From: Candidatus Levybacteria bacterium RIFCSPHIGHO2_01_FULL_37_17
Lineage (GTDB): Bacteria; Patescibacteriota; Microgenomatia; Levybacterales; UBA12049
Direction of reading: 5' to 3'
Assembly (NCBI GenBank): GCA_001782035.1
Contig: MFNL01000001.1
Span: 2,643 to 66,642 of the forward strand
DNA length: 64,000 nt
The translations under genes were made by a program, and so were the position numbers. This document shows positions 12,664 through 64,000 of the stretch, piece by piece (the first letter of the stretch is position 1; each line of letters starts with the position of its first letter). The notes beneath the pieces are model-generated. The model did no database searches. It was given only the letters and a program-made list of their open reading frames with translations, and was not told the origin of the DNA.

Positions 12664-12703
12664 ACCGCCATTTTAACACAAACAACTTTGTTATAATCTT
12701 ATT

Positions 12704-37332: not shown

Positions 37333-37874
37333 CTGCTTCTCCAGATAACTTCTTTTTTCTTCTCTTTTTTGTTAACAAGTCTTGCATACACGAACAGAAG
37401 ATCGGAGAGTCTATTTAGATAAATCAATATATCTTTGTTAACGCTTTCCTTTTCACTTAAGGCAACCACTCTTCTTTCTGCTCTTCTTGCTAATGTTCTT
37501 GCAAAATGAAGTTTTGAGCCTGATTTTGACCCAGAAGGAAGAATGAAGTTCTCAAGAACTGGCAGTTTTTTTGATAATGCGTCTATCTCTTGTTCAAAAC
37601 TCTGAACACGAGAAGTTAAAAAATCTGATAGTTTCGTATCTTTATTTTTAGCAATAGATGAAACTGCAGAGCCGATTTCAAACAAATCATTTTGAATACT
37701 AGTCAGCCTTAATCTTAATTTCTTGTCTCTAAGATCGGAAATAACAACTCCTAAGAAACTATTCAACTCATCTATTGTTCCGTATGCTTCTACCCGCAGT
37801 GATGCCTTGGAGACCGTTTTCCCTCCGTATAATGAAGTTTTTCCTTTATCCCCAAACTTTGTATATATAGACAT
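37329..37874 (-). CDS. ATP:cob(I)alamin adenosyltransferase, PduO/MMAB type
   Basis: MSIYTKFGDKGKTSL...RVEAYGTIDELNSFLG matches the PduO-type N-terminal signature; strong SD GAGGAG 7 nt upstream. Confidence 0.8.
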   Translation of the reverse strand: MSIYTKFGDKGKTSLYGGKTVSKASLRVEAYGTIDELNSFLGVVISDLRDKKLRLRLTSIQNDLFEIGSAVSSIAKNKDTKLSDFLTSRVQSFEQEIDALSKKLPVLENFILPSGSKSGSKLHFARTLARRAERRVVALSEKESVNKDILIYLNRLSDLLFVYARLVNKKEKKKEVIWRSR

Positions 37875-37879
37875 AAAAA

Positions 37880-38010
37880 AACTCCTCGTTCCCGAGAAGC
37901 TTAATAATTTCCTGGTCCCGGGAACTGCATAAGGTGGTTTTCCGACTTTACGGTAGCGGCACTGTGGAGGAATTACACCTCGCTTACCCTTTCCTTATTG
38001 ATACTTTTAT
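37880..38010 (-). promoter_or_regulatory. cobalamin (AdoCbl) riboswitch-like leader
   Basis: Minus-strand RNA reads AGGGUAAGC...GGUGUAAUUCC...CCGCUACCGUAA...AGUCGGAAAACCACC, matching GGUGnAAnUCC, the B12 box (CCGCCACUGUAA, 10/12) and AGYCAGGAGACC. Followed by GUUCCCG/CGGGAAC hairpin abutting the SD. Confidence 0.5.
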
Positions 38011-38032: not shown

Positions 38033-40489
38033 TTAACATTCCGAATATCCGCATGCGTAACATTTTTTACAACCTTCTTCATATGCAAGAGATGCTGCCC
38101 CGCAGTCTGGGCAAATATCGTAAAGTCCTGTTTGTACTCCTGCTGCTACGAGCTCTCCTGTTGGACTTGAAGCAAGGGTTAATTGCTCAAGCTTTACAAC
38201 TTCCTGTTTCAGCTCAACTCCAGAATCGGGGGGTAGAATGTGAGATTCTTCTGCTTTAATCGTATTGCCGTTTGTATGTCCGTTTGAAAGACCGTTTCCG
38301 TTTGTTGAGTGGCCATTTATCAAAACATTTTTGTCTTCTACCACTCCGTTAACCCTAAATTCAAAGTGCCTCGACAAAACTTTTGCTACTGCATCAGGCA
38401 GCGAGCGTACCCGGTTTTCTCCAAATCCAACGCTTCTTGCGCCACCTATTCCAATAAGCTGGGCGACAACCTGTCTTACTCTTTCCCTTGGAGAAAGTAG
38501 TCCGTTTAATCTTAGGTTGAGAGATATCATTCTTCCTAAAGCATCTGCCATTGCCGCTACATCGGACCCCGATTTTCCAACTGTTATAAATACTTCGAAG
38601 GGCTCTTTTGAAGTATTGTGGTTAATTGTTATATAAGTTTTGCCAACGGGAGTTTCGGTTCCGTAAGTGACTCCTTCAACCACCATTGGCCTTGGAATAA
38701 CCGGCACTTGTGGGATTTGAACAACTTCTGCTTTAACTTCATCTTTTTTATCTTCTTTTCTTGACAGCACCCCTTCCCTGCTTCCATCTCTCATATAGGT
38801 TATACCTTTAAGCCCACTGTCATATGCCATTGTGTAGAGTTTTTTTACATCCTCTACTGTATGTGCATTTGGCGCATTAACGGTTTTTGAAATTGAACTA
38901 TCAATGTAGTCTTGGGCAACCGCTTGAACTTTGACATGTTCTTCGGGGGTCAAATCATTTGCCGACACAAAAAAGTTAGGTTTTTCTGCGCCTGCATTCT
39001 CTTTTTTCCATTCTTCAAATAGCGGATGGTACATTAAATGCTCACCGAGTCTATCCCGTCTTATAAATTCAAACTCATAAACCGGCTCAACTCCGGATGA
39101 TACTCCCGAAATAAGGGATGTCGTTCCAGTTGGTGCAATAGTTAAAAGGACCGCATTTCTTATTCCTTGTTTGTAGATTTTCTTTCTTATATCCTCCGGC
39201 AGTTTCTGGATATGATATCCTTTTTGATATAAATCTTTCTTGTATTTAGGAAAGCTTCCTTTCTCAATAGCAATATCGGAAGAAGCAATGTAAGCATTGT
39301 CTCTTAATGTTTTGAATATTTTCTCAATTACGGGAAGACTTTCTTCCGAGCCATATTTCATCTTCATTTTTATTAATGCATCGGCAAGCCCTAATATTCC
39401 AAGCCCAGTTCTTCTAATGTCCTTTGCCACTCTTTCATTTTCTTTATAAAAATAGTATGTTTCATCAATTACGTTATCCAAAAATCTCATCGCAACTCTT
39501 ACGTCTTTTCCAAAATTTCCATAATCAAAGACTCCTTTTTTGTTTACATATGCAGCCAAATTCATTGCTCCTAGGTTACATACTGCCCACGGAGAAAGAG
39601 GCTGTTCACCGCAAGGATTTGTGGCAGAAAGCCTCTCGAAATACCAAGTGTTGCTTCTTTTGTTGCTTCTATCCAAAAAGTGAAGTCCCGGCTCGGCAGA
39701 CCTCCAAGCCGCCGTACATATTAAATCCCACAAGTATTTTGCTTTAACAGTTTTATAAACCTTAAGCTTACCGCCTGCTTTTTTCCATTCTTCAACGTCG
39801 CCTTTCCACTTTTTGTCATATTTTTTATCGTCCAAATCAGGGAAAACGAGCTGCCAATCGCCGTCTTTTTTAACAGCGTCCATAAATGCATCTGACACAC
39901 AAACCGAAAGATTTGCTCCGTTTATTTTGCTTAAGTCTTGTTTTACAGTTATAAACTCCTCGATATCCGGATGCCAATCATGAAGCATCAACATCAGGGC
40001 ACCACGTCTACTTCCACCTTGCTGTACAATATCTTTCGTCGCCAAAGAATATAATTCTGCCCAGTTCATCGGACCCGAAGAAAATCCGTTTACTTTTTTT
40101 ACTCTTGCGCCTCGGGGACGCAACGAGGAAAGGTTAAGTCCAACACCACCTGCTCTTGCCATAATTTCAATCATTTGCGTGAGATTTTCCATTATTCCAC
40201 CCCTACTATCCGGAGGGTTTGGAATTACGAAACAATTAAAGTAAGAAACATCATAGCCAGTTCCCGCGCCTGAGAGTATTCGGCCTCCCGGAAGGAACTT
40301 AAAATCATACATTGCTTCAAAAAACTTCTTTTCCCACTTTTTACGGTTCTTTACTTTTTCGACACTGGCAATAGCGCGAGCCACTCTCCTCCACATCTCA
40401 TCAGGAGTTTTTTCCAGAGGATTTCCAGCAGTATCTTTTAATGAATACCTGTCTAAAAATACTTTTTGTCTTACGCCATCTAATTTCAT
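38033..40489 (-). CDS. nrdJ: ribonucleotide reductase class II, adenosylcobalamin-dependent
   Basis: 818 aa; class II RNR active-site region, C-terminal CPDCG...CKKCYACGYSEC redox tail. Confidence 0.9.
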   Translation of the reverse strand: MKLDGVRQKVFLDRYSLKDTAGNPLEKTPDEMWRRVARAIASVEKVKNRKKWEKKFFEAMYDFKFLPGGRILSGAGTGYDVSYFNCFVIPNPPDSRGGIMENLTQMIEIMARAGGVGLNLSSLRPRGARVKKVNGFSSGPMNWAELYSLATKDIVQQGGSRRGALMLMLHDWHPDIEEFITVKQDLSKINGANLSVCVSDAFMDAVKKDGDWQLVFPDLDDKKYDKKWKGDVEEWKKAGGKLKVYKTVKAKYLWDLICTAAWRSAEPGLHFLDRSNKRSNTWYFERLSATNPCGEQPLSPWAVCNLGAMNLAAYVNKKGVFDYGNFGKDVRVAMRFLDNVIDETYYFYKENERVAKDIRRTGLGILGLADALIKMKMKYGSEESLPVIEKIFKTLRDNAYIASSDIAIEKGSFPKYKKDLYQKGYHIQKLPEDIRKKIYKQGIRNAVLLTIAPTGTTSLISGVSSGVEPVYEFEFIRRDRLGEHLMYHPLFEEWKKENAGAEKPNFFVSANDLTPEEHVKVQAVAQDYIDSSISKTVNAPNAHTVEDVKKLYTMAYDSGLKGITYMRDGSREGVLSRKEDKKDEVKAEVVQIPQVPVIPRPMVVEGVTYGTETPVGKTYITINHNTSKEPFEVFITVGKSGSDVAAMADALGRMISLNLRLNGLLSPRERVRQVVAQLIGIGGARSVGFGENRVRSLPDAVAKVLSRHFEFRVNGVVEDKNVLINGHSTNGNGLSNGHTNGNTIKAEESHILPPDSGVELKQEVVKLEQLTLASSPTGELVAAGVQTGLYDICPDCGAASLAYEEGCKKCYACGYSEC

Positions 40490-40501: not shown

Positions 40502-40951
40502 TTAATTGATAAGCCTTTTTACTTCTTTTTCAAAATCTTCAACGTCTACGAAGTTTTTAAACACACTTGAAAATCTTATATAAGCCACTTTGTCTAATTT
40601 TTTAAGTCTTGCTGCTACCATATTGCCTATTTTTTTACTTTCCACTTCAACTCCTGTTTCTCCTCTTAGTTCCATTTCGATATCTGTTACTATTTGCTCT
40701 ATTACATCAAGAGGAATTTTTGTCTTTTCGCAAGAGCGTATTATTCCTCTTTTTAATTTATCTCTATCAAATTGTTCCCGTCTTCCGTCCTTTTTAATTA
40801 CTATTAAATTTATATTTTCAATTCTCTCGTAAGTCGTAAACCTTTTATTGCATTGTCCACACTCGCGTCTTCTTCTTATAGTCTCTAAGTCTTCACTGTC
40901 TCTTGTTTCTACTACTTCTGTATCTGTTAATCCGCAATATGGACACTTCAT
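40502..40951 (-). CDS. nrdR: transcriptional repressor NrdR
   Basis: MKCPYCG...CGQCNKRFTTYE zinc ribbon plus ATP-cone; 12 nt upstream of nrdJ. Confidence 0.9.
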   Translation of the reverse strand: MKCPYCGLTDTEVVETRDSEDLETIRRRRECGQCNKRFTTYERIENINLIVIKKDGRREQFDRDKLKRGIIRSCEKTKIPLDVIEQIVTDIEMELRGETGVEVESKKIGNMVAARLKKLDKVAYIRFSSVFKNFVDVEDFEKEVKRLIN

Positions 40952-45336: not shown

Positions 45337-47574
45337 ATGGCTCAAGCCAAATATGGTATCATTGTGAATGTGAAAAAGAGCAACTTTTCTTATTATTTAA
45401 CTAGGGTTAAAGGTTTTCCAAGAATTCATTTAATCGCAGCTGCTTTGTGCTTGATTTTCCTTGGGGCATTTTACTTCTATATATTAAAAGACCTGCCTCT
45501 TCCTACAAATCTGTCTTCTTCATCAAACCCAGAGACGACTTTAATTTATGATAGAGATGGAAAGATTTTATACAATATCTACGACAAGCGAAACCAAATA
45601 TCTATTCCACTTGCTTCTATGCCCAAACATTTAAAGGAAGCGACACTTTCTATAGAAGATAAAAATTTTTACCACCATGGAGCTATTGATTTAAGGGGAA
45701 TGACAAGAGCAGCAATATCAATTGTTTTCAGGCAGCAAATACAAGGCGGCTCAACTCTAACCCAGCAGCTTGTAAAAAACAGCCTTCTTACCCAGGAAAG
45801 AACAATCCCCCGCAAAATTAAAGAGATCCTTCTTTCTTTTGCTACAGAATTTCTCTACACAAAAGACCAGATTTTGGAAATGTATTTAAACCAGACTCCT
45901 TACGGAGGCCTGGCTTATGGAGTTGAGGCGGCCGCAGATACTTACTTTGGAAAACACGCGAAAGACTTAACTCTGTCTGAGGCTGCACTTATTGTAGGGC
46001 TTCCGCAATCCCCAACCCGTTATTCTCCTTTTGGGGCCCGTCCTGAGCTTGCAAAAGCAAGACAACTTGAGGTGCTGAAGAATATGGAAGAAGCAGGATA
46101 TATAACATCTGCGCAGAGACAAAAAGCAGAGGGCGAAAAATTAAATTATAAAACTATTGCAACGGAAATTAAGGCACCGCATTTTGTTTTGTATATAAAA
46201 GATTTGTTGATTGAAAAATATGGCGAAAAGGTAGTAGAAGAGGGAGGATTAAAAGTTACAACGAGTCTCGATTTGACAATCCAAACTGCGGCAGAAGCCT
46301 CTGTTTCTGCACAAATTGACAGCCTCCCAAAATTCTACCACGTAACAAACGGTGCTGCTTTGGTCACAAATCCTTCAACTGGTGAAATTCTTGCAATGGT
46401 TGGAAGCAAAGATTATTTTGATAGCGAAATTGACGGAAATGTAAATTTAACAACTTCGCTAAGACAGCCAGGCTCATCTATAAAACCTATAAATTATGCT
46501 GTTGGTCTTATAAAAGGCTATAGCGCATCAACTGCTTTTGTAGACCAGGCCACCTGTTTTTCAAACCAGGGAGGAAGAAACTACTGTCCGAAAAACTATG
46601 ACAACCAATGGCATGGTCTAACTCAAGTTAGATATGCCCTTGCAAACTCATACAATATTCCGGCTGTTAAAATGCTCAAAACCAACACAATTCCTTCTAT
46701 GATTGCAACCGCATCTGCTATGGGAATAACAACTTTTGAGGATGCCTCAAATTATGGGCTTTCTCTAACTTTAGGGGGAGGAGAAGTGAGAATGACCGAA
46801 ATGGCAACAGCATTCGGAGTTTTTGCAAACGGCGGGTATAGAATAAACCTCCACCCAATACTTAAAGTGGTTGATAAAAAAGGGAAAGTTTTAGAGGAGT
46901 ACTCATCCCCCAAGAGTCCGATTTTTGGCAAAAAAATAATTGAGAGCGGAGTTGCTTTTATAATTTCAGATATTCTTTCTGATAATGGAGCAAGAACTGC
47001 CGCTTTTGGACCAAATTCACAGCTTAGAATAGATGGGAAAACGGTATCAGTCAAAACAGGTACTACAAACGACTATAAAGATAATTGGACAATAGGCTAT
47101 ACACCTTCATTTTTAGTTGCGACTTGGGTCGGGAATTTCGACAATACTGCGATGAGCGGGGTTGTATCTGGAGTAACAGGAGCAGCCCCCATTTGGAACG
47201 ATATAATGTCGTATGTTTTAGCAGGAAAGCCTGATGAACCTCCTTCAAGACCTGCCTCCATTGTTCAAAAACGGGTTTGTCAAGACACTGGGGTTGTTGC
47301 ATCTCTTGAGCAAGGTAAAGAGTGTGCAACAAGACTTGAGTACTTTATAAAAGGAACAGAAGGCGAGAAAAGTCCAATTACTCAACAGGATATATTTATT
47401 AAAAAAGGTTCGGAAGATATTCCTGCCCTAGATGACACAACAGACATTGAGGCTAAAAGCTTTTTGCTTTATGTTGACCCGACCGGGGATAAATATTGTC
47501 TAAATTGCAAAAATCCCGGAGGAATTCCTACTGTAAAATCATCTCCTACTCCAAGCCCTACTCCTTCTCCCTAG
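45337..47574 (+). CDS. class A penicillin-binding protein (PBP1A-type glycosyltransferase/transpeptidase), copy 1
   Basis: GT51 motifs EDKNFYHHGAID and GGSTLTQQL; TPase SSIKP (SxxK), SYN, KTGTT. C-terminal SPTPSPTPSP tail. Confidence 0.85.
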   Translation: MAQAKYGIIVNVKKSNFSYYLTRVKGFPRIHLIAAALCLIFLGAFYFYILKDLPLPTNLSSSSNPETTLIYDRDGKILYNIYDKRNQISIPLASMPKHLKEATLSIEDKNFYHHGAIDLRGMTRAAISIVFRQQIQGGSTLTQQLVKNSLLTQERTIPRKIKEILLSFATEFLYTKDQILEMYLNQTPYGGLAYGVEAAADTYFGKHAKDLTLSEAALIVGLPQSPTRYSPFGARPELAKARQLEVLKNMEEAGYITSAQRQKAEGEKLNYKTIATEIKAPHFVLYIKDLLIEKYGEKVVEEGGLKVTTSLDLTIQTAAEASVSAQIDSLPKFYHVTNGAALVTNPSTGEILAMVGSKDYFDSEIDGNVNLTTSLRQPGSSIKPINYAVGLIKGYSASTAFVDQATCFSNQGGRNYCPKNYDNQWHGLTQVRYALANSYNIPAVKMLKTNTIPSMIATASAMGITTFEDASNYGLSLTLGGGEVRMTEMATAFGVFANGGYRINLHPILKVVDKKGKVLEEYSSPKSPIFGKKIIESGVAFIISDILSDNGARTAAFGPNSQLRIDGKTVSVKTGTTNDYKDNWTIGYTPSFLVATWVGNFDNTAMSGVVSGVTGAAPIWNDIMSYVLAGKPDEPPSRPASIVQKRVCQDTGVVASLEQGKECATRLEYFIKGTEGEKSPITQQDIFIKKGSEDIPALDDTTDIEAKSFLLYVDPTGDKYCLNCKNPGGIPTVKSSPTPSPTPSP

Positions 47575-47634: not shown

Positions 47635-49932
47635 ATGAAGTTTTTAGTTGATTTAATTAATGGGTTATTGTATTTATTCTCGGCAGTTGGGAATTTTGTG
47701 CTGTTTTACCTTAACCTCTTTTTGTGGATATTATTAAGGCTGACTAGCCTTGCCAAAGAAATCGTTGTAAAAGCACATACAAGTTCTTTGCAGAAATATA
47801 GAGGCGTTAAGGAGGCAGTGGCTTACGGTTGGCAGAATTTAGACAAAAAAGGAAAGCTTGCGACATTCCGGTTTTTTTTATCCTATAAGTCTTTCGGGGG
47901 AAAGCTTTCCGTAAAGGAGACAAAGAAACAAAGACCGAAAAAAAAGATAAATTCAGTAACTATATATCCCGCCCCAAAAAATATTTTCTTAAAGCTAAGA
48001 TATTTTGTTTTTGGCTTTTTAATATGCTTTGTTTTTATAATGATTCCTTTAACTCTTTATTTTTTGGTAAACAGCCTACCCAATCCGAAAAGCTTACAAA
48101 ATAGAGAGATACCCCAAACAACAAAAATTTATGATAGAAATAGAAAGCTTTTATATCAAATATACGCAAATGAAAACAGAACCCTAGTTCCCCTTTCTCA
48201 AATTCCCAAAAATTTAATTAATGCAACGATTGCAATAGAGGATAAGGATTTTTATAAAAATCCGGGCTTTGATGTTGCAGCAATTGCAAGAGCGGCAATT
48301 GCAGATTTATCGGGAAAACCGATTCAGGGTGGATCAACAATAACCCAACAGTTAATAAAATCAAGCCTTCTAAATCCTGAGGTAACTATTACTAGAAAAA
48401 TAAAAGAAATTATTCTTGCCTTCTGGGCCGAGAGACTTTACAGTAAAAACGAGATTCTCGAAATGTATTTCAATCAAGTGCCATACGGCGGAACAGCCTG
48501 GGGAGTCGAAGCTGCGTCTGAGACATATTTTGGGAAAAATGTAAAAGATTTAACCATCGCTGAAGCCGCTTTTCTTGCCGGAATGCCTCAAGCGCCTACC
48601 ACTTATTCTCCCTACGGACAAAATCCTAATTTATGGAAGAGAAGACAAACAGATGTTCTTAAAAGAATGAGAGATTTGAAATATATAGACCAGCAAAAGA
48701 TGGAGGAAGCCTTAGGCGAGGAGCTTTCCTTCAAATCACCACGGACTCCAATATATGCACCTCATTTTGTCATGTACGTTAAGGATTTGCTTGTGCAAAA
48801 GTACGGTCTTCCTCTGGTTGAAAAAGGGGGATTAAATGTTATAACGACTCTTGATTTAAATACTCAAAATATGGCCCAAAATATCGTCACAGCAGAGGTT
48901 GACAATGATTGGTATTTAAACCTGACAAACGGTGCAGCTTTGGTCACAAATCCTTCAACTGGTGAAATTTTAGCAATGGTTGGCTCAAAAGACTACAATG
49001 ACCTAAATGGCGGAAATGTTAATTTAACAACTGCACTAAGACAACCAGGCTCATCTATTAAGGTCGTGACCTACTCAGCGGCACTTGAAAACGGATTTAC
49101 CGCAGCGACAATTCTTGATGATTCTCCTGTTGTATATCAGATCCCGGGTTCGGTACCTTATGCACCTGTTAACTATGATGGCGGATTCAAAGGCAAAATT
49201 CCGCTTAGAATTGCATTTGCAAATTCACTGAACGTTCCTGCTGTAAAAACCTTGGCTAAAATAGGAATTTCTACAATGGTTGATACTGCTAAGAAAATGG
49301 GAATAACGACCTGGAAATCACCTCAAAATTACGGTCTTTCACTTACTCTTGGCGCAGCAGAAGTAAAAATGACAGAACTTTCAACAGTTTATGGAACCAT
49401 TGCAAATTCAGGAGAACGAATTGACTTAAATCCGTTTCTCAAAGTAACAAACAGAAATGGCGAGATTTTTTACCAAAGCGAAGAACCGATAGGAAAAAAA
49501 GTGATTGACGAAGGAGTCGCCTACATTATTTCAAATATTTTAGCTGATAATGCTGCTCGGTCTTTAGAGTTTGGCACCAATTCTCCCCTAAATATTCCCG
49601 GGCATGTTGTATCTGTAAAAACAGGGACAACTGACAATAAAAGAGACAACTGGACTGTTGGATTTACACCCAATTTACTTGTTGCAGTTTGGGTTGGAAA
49701 CAATGACAATTCCCCTATGAGTCAGCATCTTGCATCCGGAATAACAGGTGCTGCTCCAATCTGGAATAAGATAATTACAAATCTGCTTTCAGACCAAAAA
49801 AGTGTTGCAACGGCTACGCCTTCAAATCTGATTTTAAAAAGATGTGGTGGAAGAATTGAATATTTTATAAAAGGGACTGAGAATTTATCAAACTGCGCTT
49901 TTTCTGCAACTCCGTCAGCTGCCCCTATCTAG
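47635..49932 (+). CDS. class A penicillin-binding protein, copy 2
   Basis: Same GT51 and TPase motifs (EDKDFYKNPGFD, SSIK, KTGTT). A 33-nt stretch is identical to copy 1. Confidence 0.85.
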   Translation: MKFLVDLINGLLYLFSAVGNFVLFYLNLFLWILLRLTSLAKEIVVKAHTSSLQKYRGVKEAVAYGWQNLDKKGKLATFRFFLSYKSFGGKLSVKETKKQRPKKKINSVTIYPAPKNIFLKLRYFVFGFLICFVFIMIPLTLYFLVNSLPNPKSLQNREIPQTTKIYDRNRKLLYQIYANENRTLVPLSQIPKNLINATIAIEDKDFYKNPGFDVAAIARAAIADLSGKPIQGGSTITQQLIKSSLLNPEVTITRKIKEIILAFWAERLYSKNEILEMYFNQVPYGGTAWGVEAASETYFGKNVKDLTIAEAAFLAGMPQAPTTYSPYGQNPNLWKRRQTDVLKRMRDLKYIDQQKMEEALGEELSFKSPRTPIYAPHFVMYVKDLLVQKYGLPLVEKGGLNVITTLDLNTQNMAQNIVTAEVDNDWYLNLTNGAALVTNPSTGEILAMVGSKDYNDLNGGNVNLTTALRQPGSSIKVVTYSAALENGFTAATILDDSPVVYQIPGSVPYAPVNYDGGFKGKIPLRIAFANSLNVPAVKTLAKIGISTMVDTAKKMGITTWKSPQNYGLSLTLGAAEVKMTELSTVYGTIANSGERIDLNPFLKVTNRNGEIFYQSEEPIGKKVIDEGVAYIISNILADNAARSLEFGTNSPLNIPGHVVSVKTGTTDNKRDNWTVGFTPNLLVAVWVGNNDNSPMSQHLASGITGAAPIWNKIITNLLSDQKSVATATPSNLILKRCGGRIEYFIKGTENLSNCAFSATPSAAPI

Positions 49933-50996: not shown

Positions 50997-51616
50997 TACT
51001 TACCTATTATAACAAGAGCGTCAGAGGAAAAACCATTGGAAAGGTTTGCGGATGTGCTTCCAACGGTATAGGTAAAACCCAAATCTTTTTTCAAAAGATT
51101 TAGAAATTCACTCTTACCTGATTTAACCAGTATGGATACATTTGCATATTCGAAATTATCGGCATTTCCTGTTCCAACAACATTATATCCAAGGTTTTTT
51201 AACGTATCTGAGCCTTTTGATGCCACCCCTGATTCACCACTTCCGTTTTGAACAGTGACAGAAAGCTCGCTTCTGTCAAGCCCTGTTTGTGTATCCACGG
51301 GGTTGATTGTGGGCTTTGGAGTTGGGGTATTTGTAGGAGTTGGTGTTGGAGAATCACTTGGGGAAGGAATTGATGTTTCAGTGGGAAAAACTGTGGGGGT
51401 TAAAACTTTGGGTTTATCATCTACGCTTTCGTTTGTTGAGCCTAGAATTTTAAAAGCAAAAAATATTAATAAAGCCAAAACGACAAGAGCTAAGTAGATA
51501 AATTTTTTGTTTATCTTTCTTTTGGGCGGGGGGAATGTTGGAACCGACTCAAGCGGTGCTTCTTCCATATCCTGCCTTTCAAAGAGAAGGGTATCAAAAT
51601 TTTTTCCTTTTCGCAA
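50996..51616 (-). CDS. LytR_C-domain membrane protein with Pro/Thr-rich linker
   Basis: TM anchor, SPSDSPTPTPTNTPTPKPT linker. C-terminal VTVQNGSGESGVASK...LGYNVV pattern of the LytR C-terminal domain. Confidence 0.5.
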   Translation of the reverse strand: MRKGKNFDTLLFERQDMEEAPLESVPTFPPPKRKINKKFIYLALVVLALLIFFAFKILGSTNESVDDKPKVLTPTVFPTETSIPSPSDSPTPTPTNTPTPKPTINPVDTQTGLDRSELSVTVQNGSGESGVASKGSDTLKNLGYNVVGTGNADNFEYANVSILVKSGKSEFLNLLKKDLGFTYTVGSTSANLSNGFSSDALVIIGK

Positions 51617-51635
51617 GGTACTATTTAAGATTCTT

Positions 51636-51644
51636 TGGTATAAT
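51636..51644 (+). promoter_or_regulatory. extended -10 promoter (TGgTATAAT) for the SpoIID-like gene
   Basis: TGGTATAAT 10 nt upstream of ATG 51654; no clear -35. Confidence 0.25.
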
Positions 51645-51653
51645 AAGAACTCA

Positions 51654-53300
51654 ATGAAAAAAATTTTGCTCTCGTTTTTTTTATCCTTTTTTATAATATT
51701 TTTCTCTTTTATAAATGTTCCTCAGGGCTCATCAGATGAGCTAGACGATATCATTAAGCAAATAAATGAGCTAACTAATGCCTTAAACATGTCAATTAGT
51801 GCAACAAAGCCGCTTGAAGATCAAGTCAATTCAATAAAAAAAAGAGTCGCTGTAATTGAATCAGACTTAACAGTTAAAGAAAAAAGTATTAACGACGGGT
51901 ACAAAAACCTGGAAAAACAACAGGAAATTCTAAATGCAACCATCAGGGACTATTACATAAAGAGTTATTATAATTCCCCACTTTTAATTGTTCTTACCAC
52001 AAATTCTGCATCAGAGCTTACTCAGGTTTTAGGTTATCAAAGAGCAACAGCAGATAGGGACAAAGCATTAATTACTAGCCTAGTTATTTCAATATCAACT
52101 CTTGAAGAAAGAAAAAAAGCACTTGAAAGTGAAAAGAAAAGAATAGTTGTAATTAAAGACCAGCTTTCTAAAATCGTGACTGAGGCTAAAGCATATCAAG
52201 CAGATCTTTCCGGAAAAATTGCAGCATTATCTGCTAAACAGCAGGAGATTATTAATTCAAGATCAGGAACATTTACGGCAACCATAGGAGACAGTAACCT
52301 TGCAGATGATTACAACGCTTCAATTAACGGCTTTAGGGCCTCGGCTCCTGGTGGATATTTTGCAGCATTTTCGTTTGGAGCTTACACGCATAGAAAAGGG
52401 ATGAGCCAGTATGGAGCAAGGGGTAGGGCAATGAATGGACAAACTGCAAACCAAATTCTTTCAAAATATTATGGGAAAGAACCAGTAAGTAAGGATACAG
52501 GCGGCGATATAAGCGTTTCCGGTTTTGGATCGATGAATTTTGAAGACAGGTATTTAATGGGTATTGCCGAAATGCCTTCAACTTGGCACCCTGAAGCACT
52601 AAAAGCTCAAGCAATCGCTGCAAGAACTTATGCTTATAGATATAAGGTCGAGGGGAAAGAAATATGCACAACTGAAGCGTGTCAGGTGTTTTCATCTTCA
52701 AAAGCAGACAACACACCGCAGACTTGGCGCGATGCAGTAAATGCAACCCGAGGACAAGTGCTTGAAGACGTTGTAACTTACTATGCATCAACACATGGAG
52801 GCTACACCACAACAACTGGTTGGGACACAACTGATAACTCCGGTGGTTCCAATTTCATAGACAAAGCATGGGACGCAAAAGGAGGTTCTCCCTGGCTATA
52901 TAAAGCTTGGTACACGCAAGGATACAGTACAAGTTCTGACAAATGCGGCAGGTCTAATCCGTGGCTGTCTCCGGAGGAAATGGCAGACATAGTTAATGCG
53001 GCAATTGCTCTTAGAACTGGCGGTATTGATACTTCAAGAATCACTCCTGTTACAACTTCGTGTTGGGGAGGAAACCCCTACTCTATGGATGAGCTGAGGA
53101 ATTTGGTTTCTGGAAATGGTGGTATATCGCAAGCTACGTCTGTTTCTGTTTCACAAGGAGATGGAACTACCAGCAATGTTACAATAAATGGAATAAATTT
53201 TAGCGGTTCTGAATTTAAAAAAGCATTTAACTTAAGAGCGCCCGGAAGACTTTCTATTCCACAGTCAGGCTTTGCTTTTTATAACATCGAGAAAAAGTAA
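51654..53300 (+). CDS. SpoIID/LytB-domain protein (amidase enhancer-like) with N-terminal signal/anchor and coiled coil
   Basis: AQAIAARTYAY SpoIID signature. Start taken at MKKILLSFF (signal peptide), not the 51507 track start. Confidence 0.65.
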   Translation: MKKILLSFFLSFFIIFFSFINVPQGSSDELDDIIKQINELTNALNMSISATKPLEDQVNSIKKRVAVIESDLTVKEKSINDGYKNLEKQQEILNATIRDYYIKSYYNSPLLIVLTTNSASELTQVLGYQRATADRDKALITSLVISISTLEERKKALESEKKRIVVIKDQLSKIVTEAKAYQADLSGKIAALSAKQQEIINSRSGTFTATIGDSNLADDYNASINGFRASAPGGYFAAFSFGAYTHRKGMSQYGARGRAMNGQTANQILSKYYGKEPVSKDTGGDISVSGFGSMNFEDRYLMGIAEMPSTWHPEALKAQAIAARTYAYRYKVEGKEICTTEACQVFSSSKADNTPQTWRDAVNATRGQVLEDVVTYYASTHGGYTTTTGWDTTDNSGGSNFIDKAWDAKGGSPWLYKAWYTQGYSTSSDKCGRSNPWLSPEEMADIVNAAIALRTGGIDTSRITPVTTSCWGGNPYSMDELRNLVSGNGGISQATSVSVSQGDGTTSNVTINGINFSGSEFKKAFNLRAPGRLSIPQSGFAFYNIEKK

Positions 53301-56014: not shown

Positions 56015-56446
56015 ATGAAAATAATAAATAGAAAAGCGTTTTTTGAATACGAAATTCTTGAAACGTTCGAGGCTGGAATTAATTTATTCGGAAATGAGGT
56101 AAAATCTGTTCGTCTTGGCAAAGCAGATTTGGCCGGCTCTTTTGTTAAAGTTATTGGTTCAGAAATATATTTGATAAATGCCAAAATTTGGGAGTATCAA
56201 CCGGGGCAAATAGAAGGATACGATGAAAGAAGGACAAGAAAACTTTTACTGCATAAAAAACAAATTATTTCCTTAAAAAGCAAGGCCGAAGGCTCGAACT
56301 TGAATTTAGTTCCAATATCAATGTATTTAAAAAACGGCTTTATAAAAGTCGAGGTTGGGTTAGGAAAAGGCAAGAAAAAGTATGAGAAGAGACAGGCTTT
56401 AAAAAGGAAAGATTTACAAAGGGATTTGGAACGCGAACTGGGTTAG
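56015..56446 (+). CDS. smpB: SsrA-binding protein
   Basis: MKIINRKAFFEYEILETFEAGINLFGNEVKS canonical SmpB; C-terminal basic tail. Confidence 0.9.
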   Translation: MKIINRKAFFEYEILETFEAGINLFGNEVKSVRLGKADLAGSFVKVIGSEIYLINAKIWEYQPGQIEGYDERRTRKLLLHKKQIISLKSKAEGSNLNLVPISMYLKNGFIKVEVGLGKGKKKYEKRQALKRKDLQRDLERELG

Positions 56447-56774: not shown

Positions 56775-56800
56775 CCCCGCATTTAGCAGGGTTTTATTTG
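56775..56800 (-). terminator. rho-independent terminator following tmRNA
   Basis: Minus strand AAAACCCUGCUAAAUGCGGGGUUUUUUAUU: GC stem plus U tract immediately after tmRNA 3' end. Confidence 0.5.
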
Positions 56801-57163
56801 TGGAGATGTCGGGAAGTGATCCCGAGTCCAAGAAGGTATTTTTTCAAACTTCTACAAGCTTATTTTGTTATTTTTTTGATCGCCTTATTCTTTGAAAACA
56901 AACATCCATAAATAAGGTCAAGGTTATAAATTCAAAAGAGTTCTAACCATCTACTCTTTCAATTTCTCGACTAAGTTTATGCCCAAAATGTTTCATCGAG
57001 AAAAAACATTAAGGACAGCTCAACTAGTTAAGCAAAAGCAAAACGAGTTGGAGCGAATGAAGAGTTTCCTCTATCATTTATATTTTTGACTTAGTTTTAC
57101 GACTGTGAGTCTCGTCGGCTTGCAGTTTTTAAAGAACTATCTTGTCGATGCATTTGCATCCCC
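56801..57163 (-). ncRNA. ssrA: tmRNA (ssrA), standard one-piece
   Basis: 5' GGGGATG pairs with 3' CATCTCC (G3:U wobble) + discriminator A; T-arm-like CGGGATCACTTCCCG. Internal tag frame ...NDRGNSSFAPTRFAFA-TAA (stop at 57028-57030). Lies 350 nt from smpB. Confidence 0.7.
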
Positions 57164-59618: not shown

Positions 59619-59712
59619 GGAGAAGTCGCATAGTTTGGTCCATTGCGAGGGTTTGCTAAACCCTTGAGCCTGAATAAGGCTCGCGTGAGTTCGAATCTCA
59701 CCTTCTCCGCCA
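59619..59712 (+). tRNA. tRNA-Ser (anticodon GCU), CCA encoded
   Basis: Acceptor GGAGAAG/CTTCTCC, anticodon stem AGGGT/ACCCT loop TTGCTAA, long variable arm GAGCCTGAATAAGGCTC, T-arm GTGAGTTCGAATCTCAC, GCCA end. Confidence 0.8.
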
Positions 59713-59715
59713 TTC

Positions 59716-60216
59716 ATGCAGATTTTAAAAACAATTCACGAGGATTATCTGCGCTCATTAATGTTTGGACTCCAAGACGGAATTGTTTCTACTACGGGAG
59801 TGGTTATAGGGATTTCAACCGGGGTCGAAAACAAAGCAATAATAATCCTTGCTGCTTTTGTTGCAATAGCTGTTGAGGCTACTTCTATGGCAGCGGGCCA
59901 ATATTCTTCTGAAAAAGCAGTTCATCAAATGGATAAGACCGGAAGGCATACAGATAGTCTTGTTTTAGGAGCAATAATTATGTTTTTTGCGTATCTTTTA
60001 GGAGGAGCTTTCCCAATACTTCCAATTATATTTTTCCCGCAGGAAATATTTAGAATAATCGCTATTATTTCAGCATTTTTTGGTTTATTTTTAATCGGGT
60101 ACTTAAAAGGTCAACTTGTTGAACACAGACCGCTACGTTCTGCGATAGAATTATTTATAATTGGCTCTGTTGCAACAATTGTTGGGGTTGTGGTGGGTTA
60201 CTTGTTTAGAGTTTAG
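59716..60216 (+). CDS. VIT1/CCC1-family (DUF125) membrane protein
   Basis: GLQDGIVSTTGVVIG motif of VIT family, 4-5 TM helices; starts 4 nt after the tRNA. Confidence 0.6.
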   Translation: MQILKTIHEDYLRSLMFGLQDGIVSTTGVVIGISTGVENKAIIILAAFVAIAVEATSMAAGQYSSEKAVHQMDKTGRHTDSLVLGAIIMFFAYLLGGAFPILPIIFFPQEIFRIIAIISAFFGLFLIGYLKGQLVEHRPLRSAIELFIIGSVATIVGVVVGYLFRV

Positions 60217-60217
60217 G

Positions 60218-60301
60218 CGGAAGGTAGAGGATTCGAACCTCTGAGAGCTTTCGCTCACTGGTTTTCAAAACCAGCGCCATGAACCGCTCGGCCAACCTTC
60301 C
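60218..60301 (-). tRNA. tRNA-Ser (anticodon UGA)
   Basis: Acceptor GGAAGGT/ACCTTCC, anticodon stem CTGGT/ACCAG loop TTTGAAA, long variable arm, T-arm GAGGTTCGAATCCTC. Confidence 0.8.
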
Positions 60302-60327
60302 TTGGCTCAATTTTAACATAGGAAAAG

Positions 60328-60747
60328 CTATTTTAGTAGTTTTCGAGCTTCTTTCCAAACCTTTTTATCCGATGGATAAGTTAGTGTTTGTTCAACCTTT
60401 TCTTTTTCTGTCCATTTTACTTGACTCATTTCCCAATCGTGCTTTTTTACGTCCCCTCCGACTGCTTTCATAAGAAAATAATAAACAGTTTTTCTTCTTT
60501 TTTCTTCATCCCAAACATACCAATAAGTTATGGGAGTTAACGCTTTTTCAATTTTTGCCTCAACGCCGGTTTCTTCTTTTACTTCACGTATTGCGGCTTC
60601 TTCTTTGCCCTCGCCTTTTTTATGGTCGCCAATTAGTCCTTTGGGGAAAACCCAACCTTTGTGTCCTGAATGTTGTCCGAGAAGAATATAAATACTTCCA
60701 GCCTCTTTTTTGTGGACTATTCCTCCTGCAGAAAACTCAAATCTCAT
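60328..60747 (-). CDS. NUDIX hydrolase
   Basis: Perfect Nudix box GDHKKGEGKEEAAIREVKEETGV. Confidence 0.75.
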   Translation of the reverse strand: MRFEFSAGGIVHKKEAGSIYILLGQHSGHKGWVFPKGLIGDHKKGEGKEEAAIREVKEETGVEAKIEKALTPITYWYVWDEEKRRKTVYYFLMKAVGGDVKKHDWEMSQVKWTEKEKVEQTLTYPSDKKVWKEARKLLK

Positions 60748-60762
60748 TTATTCCTTTCGTTG

Positions 60763-60853
60763 TGGCGGAGAGGGGGAGATTCGAACTCCCGGTCGTCTTA
60801 CGACGACATTCACTTTCCAAGCGAACGCACTAGACCAGCTATGCGACCTCTCC
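60763..60853 (-). tRNA. tRNA-Ser (anticodon GGA), CCA encoded
   Basis: Acceptor GGAGAGG/CCTCTCC, anticodon stem TTCGC/GTGAA loop TTGGAAA, long variable arm GTCGTCGTAAGACGAC, T-arm GGGAGTTCGAATCTCCC. Confidence 0.8.
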
Positions 60854-60911
60854 TTGGTTTTCAATTATAATTAATGTTGACTTATTTCTCAATCTCTCAT
60901 ACAGTTAAATT

Positions 60912-61433
60912 ATGCCCGAACATCACGCAAAACCCCATGAAATTAATGACGTTAAAACTCTTTACGAATGGCAATCTCCCGGACGGCCTTTTAAAAAAAG
61001 AGGTAGACAATTTTATCTAACTTCCGTTTTGATTGCTTTATTTGTTGAAGCAATACTTTTCCTTTTTTCCCAGTATCTATTAATGGTCGTGGTTGTTGCA
61101 CTTGTTTTTGTTGCTTTCGCACTTTCTTATGTTCCTCCGAAAAATTTTTACTATAAAATCTCAACCGAAGGAATTATGGTTGAGGACAGGTTCTTCTTAT
61201 GGAAAGAGCTTTATGATTTCTATTATAAAAAAAGCGAGAATTTAGAAACTCTCCACATTAGAACCGAAGCATTTATTCCGGGCGAACTTATTCTAACCTT
61301 CCACGAATCTGATAAGGAAAAAATAAAACACGCACTAATTCCATATCTTTCCTTTAGGGAATATATAAGGCCTACATTTGTAGACAAAGCAGCGGATTGG
61401 CTAAGTCGCAATTTTCCCCTGGAGAATAAGTAA
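60912..61433 (+). CDS. hypothetical membrane protein
   Basis: 173 aa, two central TM helices, Tyr/Lys-rich C-terminal domain. Confidence 0.4.
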   Translation: MPEHHAKPHEINDVKTLYEWQSPGRPFKKRGRQFYLTSVLIALFVEAILFLFSQYLLMVVVVALVFVAFALSYVPPKNFYYKISTEGIMVEDRFFLWKELYDFYYKKSENLETLHIRTEAFIPGELILTFHESDKEKIKHALIPYLSFREYIRPTFVDKAADWLSRNFPLENK

Positions 61434-61467
61434 TTTGAGCTCCAAAATGCTATAATTGAAGCCAGGA

Positions 61468-61540
61468 GTGCCCGTAGTTCAATGGATAGAACGCCCGGTT
61501 GCGGACCAGGTGGTTGGAGGTTCGATTCCTCTCGGGCACG
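61468..61540 (+). tRNA. tRNA-Arg (anticodon GCG)
   Basis: Acceptor GTGCCCG/CGGGCAC, D-arm GTTCAATGGATAGAAC, anticodon loop TTGCGGA (one C:A mismatch in stem), T-arm GGAGGTTCGATTCCTCT. Confidence 0.6.
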
Positions 61541-61544
61541 CAAA

Positions 61545-61630
61545 GGAGGGTTCGCATAGCGGCCAATTGCACGAGTTTCGAAAACTCGAGGAGCAATCCT
61601 ACGCAGGTTCGAATCCTGCACCCTCCGCCA
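61545..61630 (+). tRNA. tRNA-Ser (anticodon CGA), CCA encoded
   Basis: Acceptor GGAGGGT/ACCCTCC, anticodon stem CGAGT/ACTCG loop TTCGAAA, long variable arm, T-arm GCAGGTTCGAATCCTGC. Confidence 0.8.
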
Positions 61631-61669
61631 CACTTGACTTCCTGTAAATTTTAGGTATTATACTTTTCA

Positions 61670-63241
61670 ATGAAAGAAAGAAAACTAAGAGGACTTTCTG
61701 CAACTCTAACTTCTATACTTCTTGCGGCCTGCGCACCTTCTGCGCCCGCCCCTACTCCTCGAGAAACCCAAACGCCACAACCAACTCCAACATCAAGGGC
61801 TACTGAGGTACTCGGAAGTAATATCGGTGAATTTTTAACATTTCCCATACATCCAAGTGAGGGATATTTTACAGGTGGTCCACATTCTGATGGACTATCA
61901 AATGGGGTTAGATATGCGCTTGATTTTGCTCCAAAAGAAAGAGTTCCTTGTCCGGGTGGAGTATCCGACGTGGTGGCAGAGGCTTCCGCTGCGGGTAAGG
62001 TAATCAGGGTAGGAAATGAGAGTGATCCAAGCGACCCATACCATAGCATTGTGGAGGTTGAAAATGATAATGGCTTCATCTTAGGCTACATGCATCTTTC
62101 AAATTTATTAGTTGATGTGGGCGATGAAATTGGACCTTTGCATCCATTAGGAAATGTGTCTTGTGAGATACCACCAGGGGGAGAAACGACTGGGGCTCAT
62201 GTTCATGAATACTTAAAAGACGCAAGCGGTAATCCACTACCAATTGCAGGAACAATATTTGAAGGATTTACTGTTAGAGAACTACCCCGAAATTACGACG
62301 GACTTTTGATAAATGGGGCTGATGTAAGAACAGCCGATAAAAGAAGATGCGGACCCAACCAAGCCTCAATTAATGCTTGTGGAGGAATTAGAAATGATTT
62401 AAATTATTCACCTTTTGCCACCGAAACGCCTGCGCCAACAACCTCGATTGCCGAAATATTGCAGGAGCCGCAAATCGATAACCCCTTGCTTGGCGCAAAG
62501 CAAAAAGTGCTTCAGCTTTGGGCAAGCACATGGAATCAAGACTATAGTTTTAGCTTTAACCAAGACGATGTATCAGATACAGACCATGATAATTTCGACA
62601 CAACTATATATATTAATTCAAATGCCGTAAATTTTAACGAGTGGTACAGCGCCGAGAAAGACAGCTTACTCAACAGCGCTGAGACAACTACTCCCCTTCA
62701 AATAACTTTAGACTACACACTTGAAGAATTTAGAGACAACAAGGCAACGGCGAGTCGATTTATAGTTGAAATGGAATTTAACAATATCAAGTTAAATAGC
62801 ATTGATTATAATATGGTGTCTGAGGCAGATAGAGCCAATGGAATTACCTGGGCGGGACAAGGAAATCTGCATTTTATATGGCGTTACCGAGCGATTAATT
62901 ATTATGTAAAAGACGACTATTACATATCCAATTGGGGGGATAGAGATAAAATTGAAAACTGGATTGAAGAAACGCCTGATGACCAGCTTCCTGACTTTGG
63001 ACAGTGGAGGCCGGGAGGAGTAAATGGAAACGGATATGGAATTGCATTAAAGGCTGTCAACGGCAGTTGGCAACTTTTAGATTTGATAAATCAACGCAAG
63101 GAAAGCCCCTGGACCAGAGTAATAGATCGCTATTCTCCCCAATTCACCTACGCTCTACCGATAGACGGTAATTTAAACGACATATGCACTTATACCAACG
63201 TTGATCCTTGCGAAAAGATTGAAATAAATTTCTCCAATTAA
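61670..63241 (+). CDS. secreted lipoprotein with M23 (LytM/lysostaphin-like) metallopeptidase domain and ~300-aa C-terminal domain of unknown function
   Basis: Signal + lipobox LLAAC, Pro/Thr-rich linker, M23 HxH motif GETTGAHVHEY, Trp/Asn/Tyr-rich C-terminal domain. Visibly GC-richer than surroundings. Confidence 0.6.
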   Translation: MKERKLRGLSATLTSILLAACAPSAPAPTPRETQTPQPTPTSRATEVLGSNIGEFLTFPIHPSEGYFTGGPHSDGLSNGVRYALDFAPKERVPCPGGVSDVVAEASAAGKVIRVGNESDPSDPYHSIVEVENDNGFILGYMHLSNLLVDVGDEIGPLHPLGNVSCEIPPGGETTGAHVHEYLKDASGNPLPIAGTIFEGFTVRELPRNYDGLLINGADVRTADKRRCGPNQASINACGGIRNDLNYSPFATETPAPTTSIAEILQEPQIDNPLLGAKQKVLQLWASTWNQDYSFSFNQDDVSDTDHDNFDTTIYINSNAVNFNEWYSAEKDSLLNSAETTTPLQITLDYTLEEFRDNKATASRFIVEMEFNNIKLNSIDYNMVSEADRANGITWAGQGNLHFIWRYRAINYYVKDDYYISNWGDRDKIENWIEETPDDQLPDFGQWRPGGVNGNGYGIALKAVNGSWQLLDLINQRKESPWTRVIDRYSPQFTYALPIDGNLNDICTYTNVDPCEKIEINFSN

Positions 63242-63290: not shown

Positions 63291-64000
63291 ATGAGAAAAA
63301 TTCTGTCCGTCTTTCTGCTTATTGTTTTTAGCTTATTCATCTTAATCACTCCTTCTTTTGCTCAATCGCCTACCAAAACCACACAAAAAACGAACTCTGC
63401 GCAGTATCTTACTCCAAATACAAACGAGGATGTTCCTAAAAATCTCCACACCTGGACTCAAAATATAATGATAGAAGTTTTATCCGCCGGTGTTTGCCAG
63501 CTTTCAGGGGTAGATCTAATTAACCCTGATAAAGGATGTTTGGGAATTGATTCAAAATCAGGAAAAATAGGTTACGTTAAATCAGGCGGGGGATTAATTG
63601 GAATTACCGCTTTAGCAATTGGGTCAACTTATACGCCGCCACTTCATACTGGGGACTATGTTAGATATTTATCGCAGAACTTTGGTATTGCCAAATCAAC
63701 TTACGCACAAGGATTTGGCTTTCAGGCGCTAAATCCTTTAATTCCTATCTGGTCTATTTTTAGAAACTTAGCATATGTAGTTTTAATTGTGATTTTCTTA
63801 ATTATTGGAATAGCAATAATGCTGCGTGTCCGAATTGATCCGCGTACTGTTATGACAATCCAAAACCAAATACCAAAAGTTGTAATATCGTTAGTTTTAA
63901 TTACTTTGTCCTTTGCAATTGCAGGATTTTTAATTGATTTAATGTATGTTTCCTTATTTCTTATTTATAATTTATTTGCGGGATTCAACATTGCAATAAC
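63291..64000 (+). CDS. partial CDS (runs off window): secreted protein with C-terminal multi-TM region
   Basis: ATG 63291, signal peptide MRKILSVFLLIVFSLFILITPSFAQ, ~150-aa soluble part, then consecutive hydrophobic helices; no stop before 64000. Confidence 0.4.
   Translation, partial: MRKILSVFLLIVFSLFILITPSFAQSPTKTTQKTNSAQYLTPNTNEDVPKNLHTWTQNIMIEVLSAGVCQLSGVDLINPDKGCLGIDSKSGKIGYVKSGGGLIGITALAIGSTYTPPLHTGDYVRYLSQNFGIAKSTYAQGFGFQALNPLIPIWSIFRNLAYVVLIVIFLIIGIAIMLRVRIDPRTVMTIQNQIPKVVISLVLITLSFAIAGFLIDLMYVSLFLIYNLFAGFNIAI

Follow-up and report, generated by a model that had tools for sequence, protein, structure and literature searches.

A 523-residue open reading frame (ORF; 61670..63241, + strand, ATG start) in a 64,000-nucleotide stretch of DNA from Candidatus Levybacteria, an uncultured groundwater bacterium of the candidate phyla radiation (CPR), is predicted to encode a lipoprotein that joins a LasA/beta-lytic-type (M23A) zinc endopeptidase, with its predicted catalytic residues all intact, to a fast-evolving, apparently beta-rich domain of 260 residues without known relatives. 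We refer to the whole stretch as the window and to the second module as C-dom. The protein may serve as an accessory peptidoglycan endopeptidase docked to the type IV secretion system (T4SS)/pilus apparatus of CPR bacteria, as a functional analogue of VirB1/PrgK, a reading to which we assign a probability of roughly one half. The M23A gene stands at the head of a Microgenomatia-wide cluster that also encodes a membrane protein, a regulator, VirB2-like pilins and PrgI. Its product is identical to OGH02876.1/OGH36452.1 (A2798_00405, hypothetical protein, Candidatus Levybacteria bacterium, Rifle aquifer), and the identical protein is present on 16 contigs.

Predicted lipid tether and peptidase module

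The N-terminus, MKERKLRGLSATLTSILLAAC, comprises a charged n-region, a hydrophobic stretch and an L-A-A-C lipobox, which we read as a lipoprotein signal peptide (residues 1-21; 61670..61732, + strand) that ends at Cys21 and conforms to the pattern [LVI][ASTVI][GAS]C of bacterial lipoproteins (Lgt/LspA substrates). The Cys21 column is invariant across 9/9 aligned homologues, and the only hydrophobic segment in the protein spans residues 9-27. A Pro/Thr/Ala-rich tether of 36 residues follows (residues 22-57; 61733..61840, + strand; GC content at codon position 2 (GC2) 0.63). From these features we infer that the protein sits in an extracytoplasmic position, tethered to the cytoplasmic membrane via lipid-modified Cys21 and the 36-residue linker. 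The mature protein is strongly acidic (isoelectric point (pI) 4.5, net charge -34), and the combination of a short lipid tether with acidic charge would favour action close to the producer's own membrane.

The peptidase domain (residues 58-245; 61841..62404, + strand), identified from Pfam and PDB profile matches, is separated from C-dom by a short Pro/Thr/Ala linker (residues 246-263; 62405..62458, + strand) visible in the sequence and the alignment. As a single sequence, residues 104-179 match PF01551 at E=2e-6, yet with a score of 28.4 bits against a gathering cut-off of 28.7 bits. Precomputed PF01551 annotations are carried by 8/8 homologues retrieved with the full-length query. A domain profile built from eight homologues was searched against the PDB, where its top matches were pseudoalterin (6ik4, 5.5e-12), LasA (3it5, 6.6e-12) and 8af1 (2e-11); lysostaphin and LytM, the canonical M23B enzymes, scored 2e-3 to 9e-3, and other non-M23A chains 4e-9 to 4e-5. 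The NCBIfam scan returned weak matches throughout (E>=0.013), mostly M23-related and including one to the unrelated YopJ family.

M23 enzymes share the motifs H(x)nD and HxH, with a third His about 30 residues before HxH, and LasA, for which residue roles are available, differs from the HxxxD enzymes in its H(x)12D spacing (PMC9662197). In the window protein, H72, D85 and H179 are the predicted zinc ligands, and H142, H177 and Y209 the predicted catalytic residues; H72/D85, H142, H177/H179 and Y209 align with LasA H23/D36, H81, H120/H122 and Y151, respectively. The first zinc motif, PHSDGLSNGVRYALD, places exactly 12 residues between H72 and D85, which are aligned to the corresponding His and Asp of 6ik4. 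The HxxxD motif of lysostaphin and LytM is absent: four residues before D85 stands Arg81, whereas the predicted ligand H72 precedes D85 by 13 positions. Taken together, the H-x12-D spacing and the first rank of M23A structures in the profile search indicate a domain of the LasA/beta-lytic type, not of the lysostaphin/LytM type. A preliminary description of the window, made from the sequence, had proposed a secreted M23 peptidase with an LLAAC lipobox and a lysostaphin/LytM-type HxH motif. The extracytoplasmic M23 assignment is borne out by the lipobox and by profile matches at about 5e-12 to solved M23 structures, and the HxH motif is present as H177/H179; the subtype has to be revised to M23A. 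Across the family, H72/D85, H142 and H177-V-H179 are invariant or nearly so, and the domain contains two conserved Cys pairs (94/165 and 227/237). The putative oxyanion residue Y209, found in 'RNYDG' and aligned with 'SNYDN' of LasA, is kept in 8/14 family members, the window protein included. The window protein and most of its relatives retain the full set of catalytic and zinc residues and both Cys pairs.

The resemblance to LasA, beta-lytic protease and pseudoalterin, which are also the best profile matches among solved structures, extends from the H-x12-D...H...HxH zinc site and the oxyanion Tyr to the 'CE..GG..G.H.H' context. However, the core of the window protein, at about 190 residues, ends in a family-specific tail (RTADKRRCGP...CGGIRNDL), and the protein is acidic (pI 4.8 in this comparison) and fused to the 260-residue undescribed domain in a T4SS-pilin gene context. 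Whereas the characterised M23A enzymes are proteobacterial and secreted with a propeptide through the type II secretion system, the window protein comes from a monoderm-like CPR bacterium and is predicted to be lipid-anchored, with only the 21-residue signal and the 36-residue tether preceding the domain in place of their large N-terminal propeptide. With lysostaphin and LytM it shares the M23 fold family, HxH and, by prediction, zinc-dependent Gly-X endopeptidase chemistry; it differs from them in having H-x12-D where they have H-x3-D, and in lacking an SH3b wall-targeting domain. M23A, known until now as a group of secreted proteobacterial lysins, would extend to lipid-anchored CPR proteins.

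C-dom and the pilin gene cluster

C-dom occupies residues 264-523 (260 residues; 62459..63238, + strand), as delimited by alignment. The preliminary description of a large W/N/Y-rich C-terminal domain holds and can be widened to include D, with 3.8% W, 10.8% N, 9.6% D and 5.4% Y in the C-terminal half compared to 0.9, 4.6, 5.0 and 3.5%, respectively, in other ORFs; this half is also poor in K. Among 5.8 billion proteins, the full-length query retrieved no more than eight relatives, two of which share the C-terminal half (P0001, 47% identity; P0002, 38%). An exhaustive hidden Markov model search built on these three C-terminal domains returned 50 cluster representatives. The family consists mostly of stand-alone proteins of about 250-310 residues, many with lipoboxes; C-dom is fused to M23 in at least nine of about 50 clusters. 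Fusions to a LasA-type M23 domain include P0027, P0038, P0048, P0050, P0053 and the fragment P0030; C-dom is otherwise joined to another M23 domain (P0055), a SecDF-P1-head domain (P0015) or a PsbP-like domain (P0045). A CHAP domain guessed for P0051 was not confirmed by Pfam. These proteins define a new domain family, predicted to be extracytoplasmic, with recurrent fusions to wall hydrolases.

An alignment of 32 C-dom sequences (A4) reveals the motifs GE.E(I/F)NN, (S/T)DAD.ANG..W.G, R.R, P.FS.W, NG.W and a terminal Cys...Cys; near-invariant residues in the window protein are E369, D387, A389, N390, G391, G396, R405, W446, P497, C506 and C514. Searches of Pfam, NCBIfam and PHROGs gave nothing beyond noise for C-dom (e.g. 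YopJ, E 0.03), the other family members likewise lacking Pfam matches. Comparison of the C-dom profile with PDB sequences was equally unproductive (AcrB, E 0.3), as was a Foldseek structure search of BFVD. The AlphaFold2 model obtained from A4 (pLDDT 84.9, pTM 0.83) predicts a long, strongly curved antiparallel sheet with three helices packed on top. A resemblance to the VirB8/TraM fold, hinted at early on by a model of poor quality, was not upheld, and the structural similarity of C-dom to VirB8, TraM, DotI or PrgL (NTF2-like) did not reach significance. The domain diverges fast, with 21-43% identity between homologues compared to 39-55% for the neighbouring membrane protein and 68-76% for the upstream gene.

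The gene downstream of the peptidase encodes a polytopic membrane protein, of which the window contains the 5' part (63291..64000, + strand, running off the window end). Its full length of 648 residues (11622-13568) is available from locus L002, which shares 12,331 identical nt with the window and continues past its end. The 49-nt gap between the two genes shows no + strand terminator, and the genes are probably co-transcribed. The membrane protein possesses a signal peptide and at least five transmembrane segments, and belongs to a family of at least 668 members that appears confined to Microgenomatia/Patescibacteria. Its best 120 matches all have E below 1e-148; none of these 120 carries a functional annotation or a precomputed Pfam domain, and those with a named organism are all from Levybacteria, Daviesbacteria, Microgenomates or the 'Patescibacteria group'. 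Searches of Pfam, NCBIfam and the PDB returned no match for the 648-residue protein, and consequently VirB6, considered as a candidate identity, could not be assigned. In L002, the membrane-protein gene is followed by a minus-strand gene for a large cytoplasmic protein of 1065 residues, a Trans_reg_C regulator, five T4SS_pilin genes (PF18895, VirB2-like) and PrgI (VirB3-like), the pilin array and PrgI lying 6.6-9.6 kb 3' of the M23A gene. The same gene order is found in L001, L014, L019 and L020. BLASTP detected no similarity between the large minus-strand products of L002 (1067 residues in this comparison) and L010 (1390 residues). A 788-residue T4SS coupling protein or VirB4-like ATPase with TrwB_AAD_bind, DUF87 and TraG-D_C matches is encoded elsewhere in the window (33094-35463, - strand). 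Genes for 23S rRNA-intervening sequence proteins (PF05635) occur inside the pilin arrays of L010 (7261-7659) and L020 (15785-16153 and 17621-18025).

Comparison of related loci defines a slot between a tRNA-Ser gene and the gene for the membrane protein of about 600 residues, which contains M23A plus C-dom, C-dom alone, or nothing. The combination of M23A and C-dom found in the window (and L002), after tRNA-Ser(CGA), recurs in L001 (P0002), with the same downstream order; in L008 (P0001), where the upstream 172-residue product is 76% identical to that of the window and no tRNA gene intervenes; and in L013 (P0053), after tRNA-Ser(TGA) and before the N-terminus of the membrane protein. L017 carries a version with an additional PsbP-like domain between the two modules (P0027), after tRNA-Ser(GGA) and beside a membrane protein of 38% identity (E 1e-120). 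C-dom alone occupies the slot in L011 (P0009), which has the flanking genes of the window and the same five tRNA anticodons, and in L014/L015 (P0013), where the same cluster follows, pilins included. The slot is empty in L019 and L020, in which tRNA-Ser(GGA), the membrane protein, the large minus-strand gene and the pilins are retained, Trans_reg_C being called in L019 only. Overall, the slot gene lies directly 3' of a tRNA-Ser gene in six loci, and a membrane-protein homologue directly 3' of the slot gene in six independent loci (window/L002, L001, L011, L013, L014 and L017).

Searching the GTDB species representatives, among which the window genome is not included, with the M23 domain alignment yielded two loci, L009 and L010. 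In the rearranged locus L010, from Candidatus Daviesbacteria, an M23A lipoprotein with a different C-terminus is encoded between an array of five pilins, directly 5' of it, and the membrane-protein homologue, a MazE/PIN toxin-antitoxin pair being placed between the M23A and membrane-protein genes. L009 and L010 (CAZLVB01 and CAYNFQ01) are titled 'uncultured Gammaproteobacteria', which is probably a taxonomic mislabel; L010 has CPR-type pilin arrays, and its 590-residue M23 ORF is equal in length to, and shares a 90% cluster (as a shorter call, P0004) with, a Candidatus Daviesbacteria entry.

Composition and history of the slot

The ATG of the M23A gene lies 40 positions past the end of tRNA-Ser(CGA) (61545..61630, + strand; ARAGORN and Rfam), leaving a 39-nt spacer in agreement with the preliminary description; tRNA-Arg(GCG) lies immediately upstream (61468..61541, + strand; ARAGORN, Rfam 62.6 bits). 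The spacer contains a sigma-70-like promoter match, TTGACT-16-TATTAT (61634..61661, + strand), which agrees with the consensus at 10/12 positions and is a consensus match only, the total count of promoter-like sites in the region not exceeding shuffled expectation. The -10 hexamer of this match ends 9 nt 5' of the ATG, and a Shine-Dalgarno sequence cannot be seen; both features suggest that the mRNA is leaderless or nearly so and starts just past the tRNA-Ser gene. All four tRNA-Ser isoacceptor genes (GCT, TGA, GGA and CGA) and tRNA-Arg(GCG) fall within 2 kb (59619-61630), interleaved with small genes (VIT1, NUDIX and DUF5673-like), and this cluster is kept, with local rearrangements, in several Microgenomatia genomes (L011, L015, L019 and L020).

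The observation that the gene is GC-richer than its surroundings is correct: at 42.2% GC, compared to an average of 37.4% over the ORFs, it ranks first among the 60 ORFs with 100 or more residues (z about 2) and falls within the top 1.85% of all 1572-nt windows, an excess beyond what chance would give. The excess is located at codon position 2 (GC2 0.427 versus 0.344), and is therefore an effect of amino-acid composition. GC at codon position 3 (GC3) is 0.332 (rank 9/60, z 0.9), and the length-corrected codon-usage distance (Karlin B residual) ranks 11/60 (z 0.9), both typical for the genome. The GC-richest part of the gene is the signal and tether segment (GC2 0.63), which codes for Ala, Pro and Thr. 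The 648-residue membrane-protein gene and most pilin genes follow the same pattern (GC about 0.41, GC2 0.37-0.45), and homologues in other genomes lie about 1-5 GC points, mostly about 2, above their own loci. Insofar as the GC2 excess is common to the secreted and membrane proteins of this neighbourhood and to the homologues, it carries no foreign signature.

The preliminary description had further proposed that the gene was horizontally acquired and inserted after the tRNA genes. A recent foreign origin is not supported: GC3 and codon usage are normal, and no copy of the tRNA 3' end that could form an attachment-site (att)-like direct repeat was found downstream, the search recovering only two tRNA T-loops. 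Pfam turned up no integrase in those flanking ORFs that were scanned. The slot is filled by a homologue in L001, L008, L011, L013, L014/L015 and L017. Phylogeny had been put forward as a check for transfer; neighbour-joining trees of the membrane protein and of C-dom agree on the closest pair (window and L001), and they group L019, whose slot is empty, as the sister of L017, whose slot is filled. Synteny with relatives extends to the tRNA-Ser/Arg cluster and to both flanking genes, which speaks against an insertion event; what survives of that proposal is that the slot after tRNA-Ser is evolutionarily labile. The history of the slot is explained more simply by an ancestral gene that was lost repeatedly, although older transfers within the lineage may have contributed. 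As a methodological caution, a locally GC-rich gene beside tRNAs is by itself no evidence of horizontal transfer.

Candidate functions and other window features

In the accessory-enzyme reading proposed above, C-dom would dock the enzyme either to the envelope apparatus, where the probably co-transcribed membrane protein is the simplest partner, or to wall glycan, and the M23A module would cleave peptide cross-links of peptidoglycan locally, such that the pilus/T4SS could cross the sacculus. The wall that is cut may be the cell's own, which is more likely for a short-tethered lipoprotein, or that of a host at the contact site. Such a role would be analogous to that of VirB1/PrgK/TraG, proteins that standard profiles do not detect in most Patescibacteria. 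A 2025 survey found no detectable VirB1 in most Patescibacteria with VirB2 arrays, few VirB6 proteins in Microgenomatia and an essentially complete lack of VirB8, and it noted Peptidase_M23 domains on some patescibacterial VirB1 homologues (PMC12102498). Epibiotic growth of S. epibionticum requires a peptidase and a lysozyme encoded next to virB4 (PMC12102498). The likeness of the window protein to VirB1, PrgK (pCF10), TraG (pIP501) and TcpG is that of a membrane-associated wall hydrolase, here a predicted one, encoded within or beside T4SS genes. PrgK contains a LytM/M23 module as well. The window protein differs from this group in the absence of SLT, lysozyme or CHAP domains, M23 being the sole Pfam match, and shows no homology to VirB1, TrsG or CD419; compared to VirB1-type proteins, it is a predicted endopeptidase rather than a muramidase, is optional in its cluster and is not encoded adjacent to VirB4.

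Several observations weigh against the accessory-enzyme reading. Activity and substrate are predictions, the T4SS link comes from gene neighbourhood, and most loci belong to related genomes, in which synteny may simply be inherited. Within the window, the sole T4SS ATPase that was seen (33094-35463) is 26 kb distant, and adjacency to VirB4 was not seen. The single-sequence Pfam M23 score is 0.3 bits below the curated threshold, and P0002 and P0050 have HxD instead of HxH. The M23A lipoprotein of L009, with a redoxin-like C-terminus, has no pilin genes within 8.7 kb. Finally, the slot is empty in L019 and L020 and holds C-dom without M23 in L011 and L014, which indicates that the peptidase is no obligatory component of the apparatus.

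The same variable presence would also be expected of a horizontally acquired lytic weapon, the possibility raised in the preliminary description, in which the M23A enzyme, set free or displayed on the cell surface, breaches the peptidoglycan of a host or neighbour for attachment, feeding or killing, and C-dom recognises the target wall. The fast divergence of C-dom fits a specificity determinant, M23A modules bear varied C-termini (Kelch, redoxin-like and others), and the characterised M23A enzymes (LasA, beta-lytic protease and pseudoalterin) are all bacteriolytic exoenzymes against other bacteria; CPR bacteria are, moreover, commonly epibionts (PMC12102498). We nevertheless regard this explanation as doubtful. 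The lipobox and 36-residue tether would hold the enzyme to the membrane of the cell that makes it, the sequence shows no sign of a propeptide or release signal, and the acidic mature protein is unlike many cationic wall-targeting lysins (PMC9662197). The acquisition that it presupposes is opposed by the unremarkable composition and codon usage, the lack of an att repeat and of an integrase match in the flanking ORFs scanned, the same-slot homologues in relatives and the identical closest pair in the C-dom and neighbour-gene trees. The lipid anchor, in turn, would suit a housekeeping autolysin placed beside its own sacculus for wall growth or daughter-cell separation, with the pilin neighbourhood an inherited synteny devoid of functional meaning. 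Roles in cell division and wall remodelling are common among M23 lipoproteins (PMC9662197), and wall-synthesis genes abound in the window (two class A penicillin-binding proteins (PBPs), SpoIID and a Mur ligase). However, M23A has no known housekeeping members, and a family with only eight full-length homologues among 5.8 billion proteins is too rare and variable for a core division enzyme. The syntenic slot is also empty (L019, L020), or the M23 module dispensable (L011, L014), in related genomes, and the close association of the gene with that for the membrane protein is kept from locus to locus, rearranged L010 included; we consider an autolysin improbable.

Dispensability of the peptidase could instead imply that the protein is mainly a non-catalytic adaptor, in which the C-dom lipoprotein partners the membrane protein and M23 is an optional extra for binding the wall or for regulation, comparable to degenerate LytM factors. 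The C-dom-only orthologues in the same slot (P0009, P0013), the prevalence of stand-alone proteins of about 250-310 residues in the C-dom family, and the HxD variants P0002 and P0050, the former of which has also lost its conserved cysteines, are all compatible with this view. Yet the catalytic and zinc residues and both Cys pairs are intact in the window protein and most homologues, which points to purifying selection on catalysis and makes an adaptor very improbable. A bolder extension of the accessory-enzyme reading would regard the C-dom lipoprotein and the membrane protein of about 600 residues as unrecognised structural parts of the Microgenomatia T4SS/VirB2-pilus, in VirB6-, VirB7/8- and VirB1-like roles, with the LasA module a lineage-specific 'drill' through the peptidoglycan of a particular host and C-dom diversification tracking host wall type; we think this rather unlikely.

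CPR/Patescibacteria are host-dependent, and their T4SS and pilin arrays are essential in the one tractable model. The functions of VirB1 (breaching of the wall), VirB6 and VirB8 are nevertheless mostly without an assigned protein, above all in Microgenomatia (PMC12102498). The locus offers a testable candidate set for missing T4SS parts, namely the membrane-protein family of at least 668 members and a variable adjacent lipoprotein that sometimes carries a LasA-type peptidase. The most interesting by-product of the analysis is the unannotated C-dom/membrane-protein pair linked to CPR pilin arrays.

Other features of the window include the wall-synthesis genes, of which the two class A PBP genes (transglycosylase plus transpeptidase) stand in tandem (45337-47574 and 47635-49932, + strand), followed a few kb further on by a SpoIID-domain protein (51507-53300, + strand); the window also encodes a Mur ligase, and a SpoIID gene lies directly 5' of the L010 pilin array. 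A full-length transfer-messenger RNA (tmRNA; 56798-57163, - strand; Rfam 109 bits), which was missed by ARAGORN in the window, adjoins the SmpB gene (56015-56446), and ARAGORN finds a tmRNA at the syntenic place in L011 and L019. An AdoCbl-II riboswitch (37929-37998, - strand, 47 bits) is located directly 5' of a PduO-type cobalamin adenosyltransferase gene (37329-37874, E 5e-58) and 3' of the genes for NrdR (40502-40951) and for a class II-like, TSCPD-domain ribonucleotide reductase (38033-40489), a region that looks like a compact unit for B12 salvage and usage in a CPR genome. The highest GC2 in the window (0.526) belongs to the ORF at 2131-3321 (- strand), which contains a CBM96 carbohydrate-binding module (E 1e-30).

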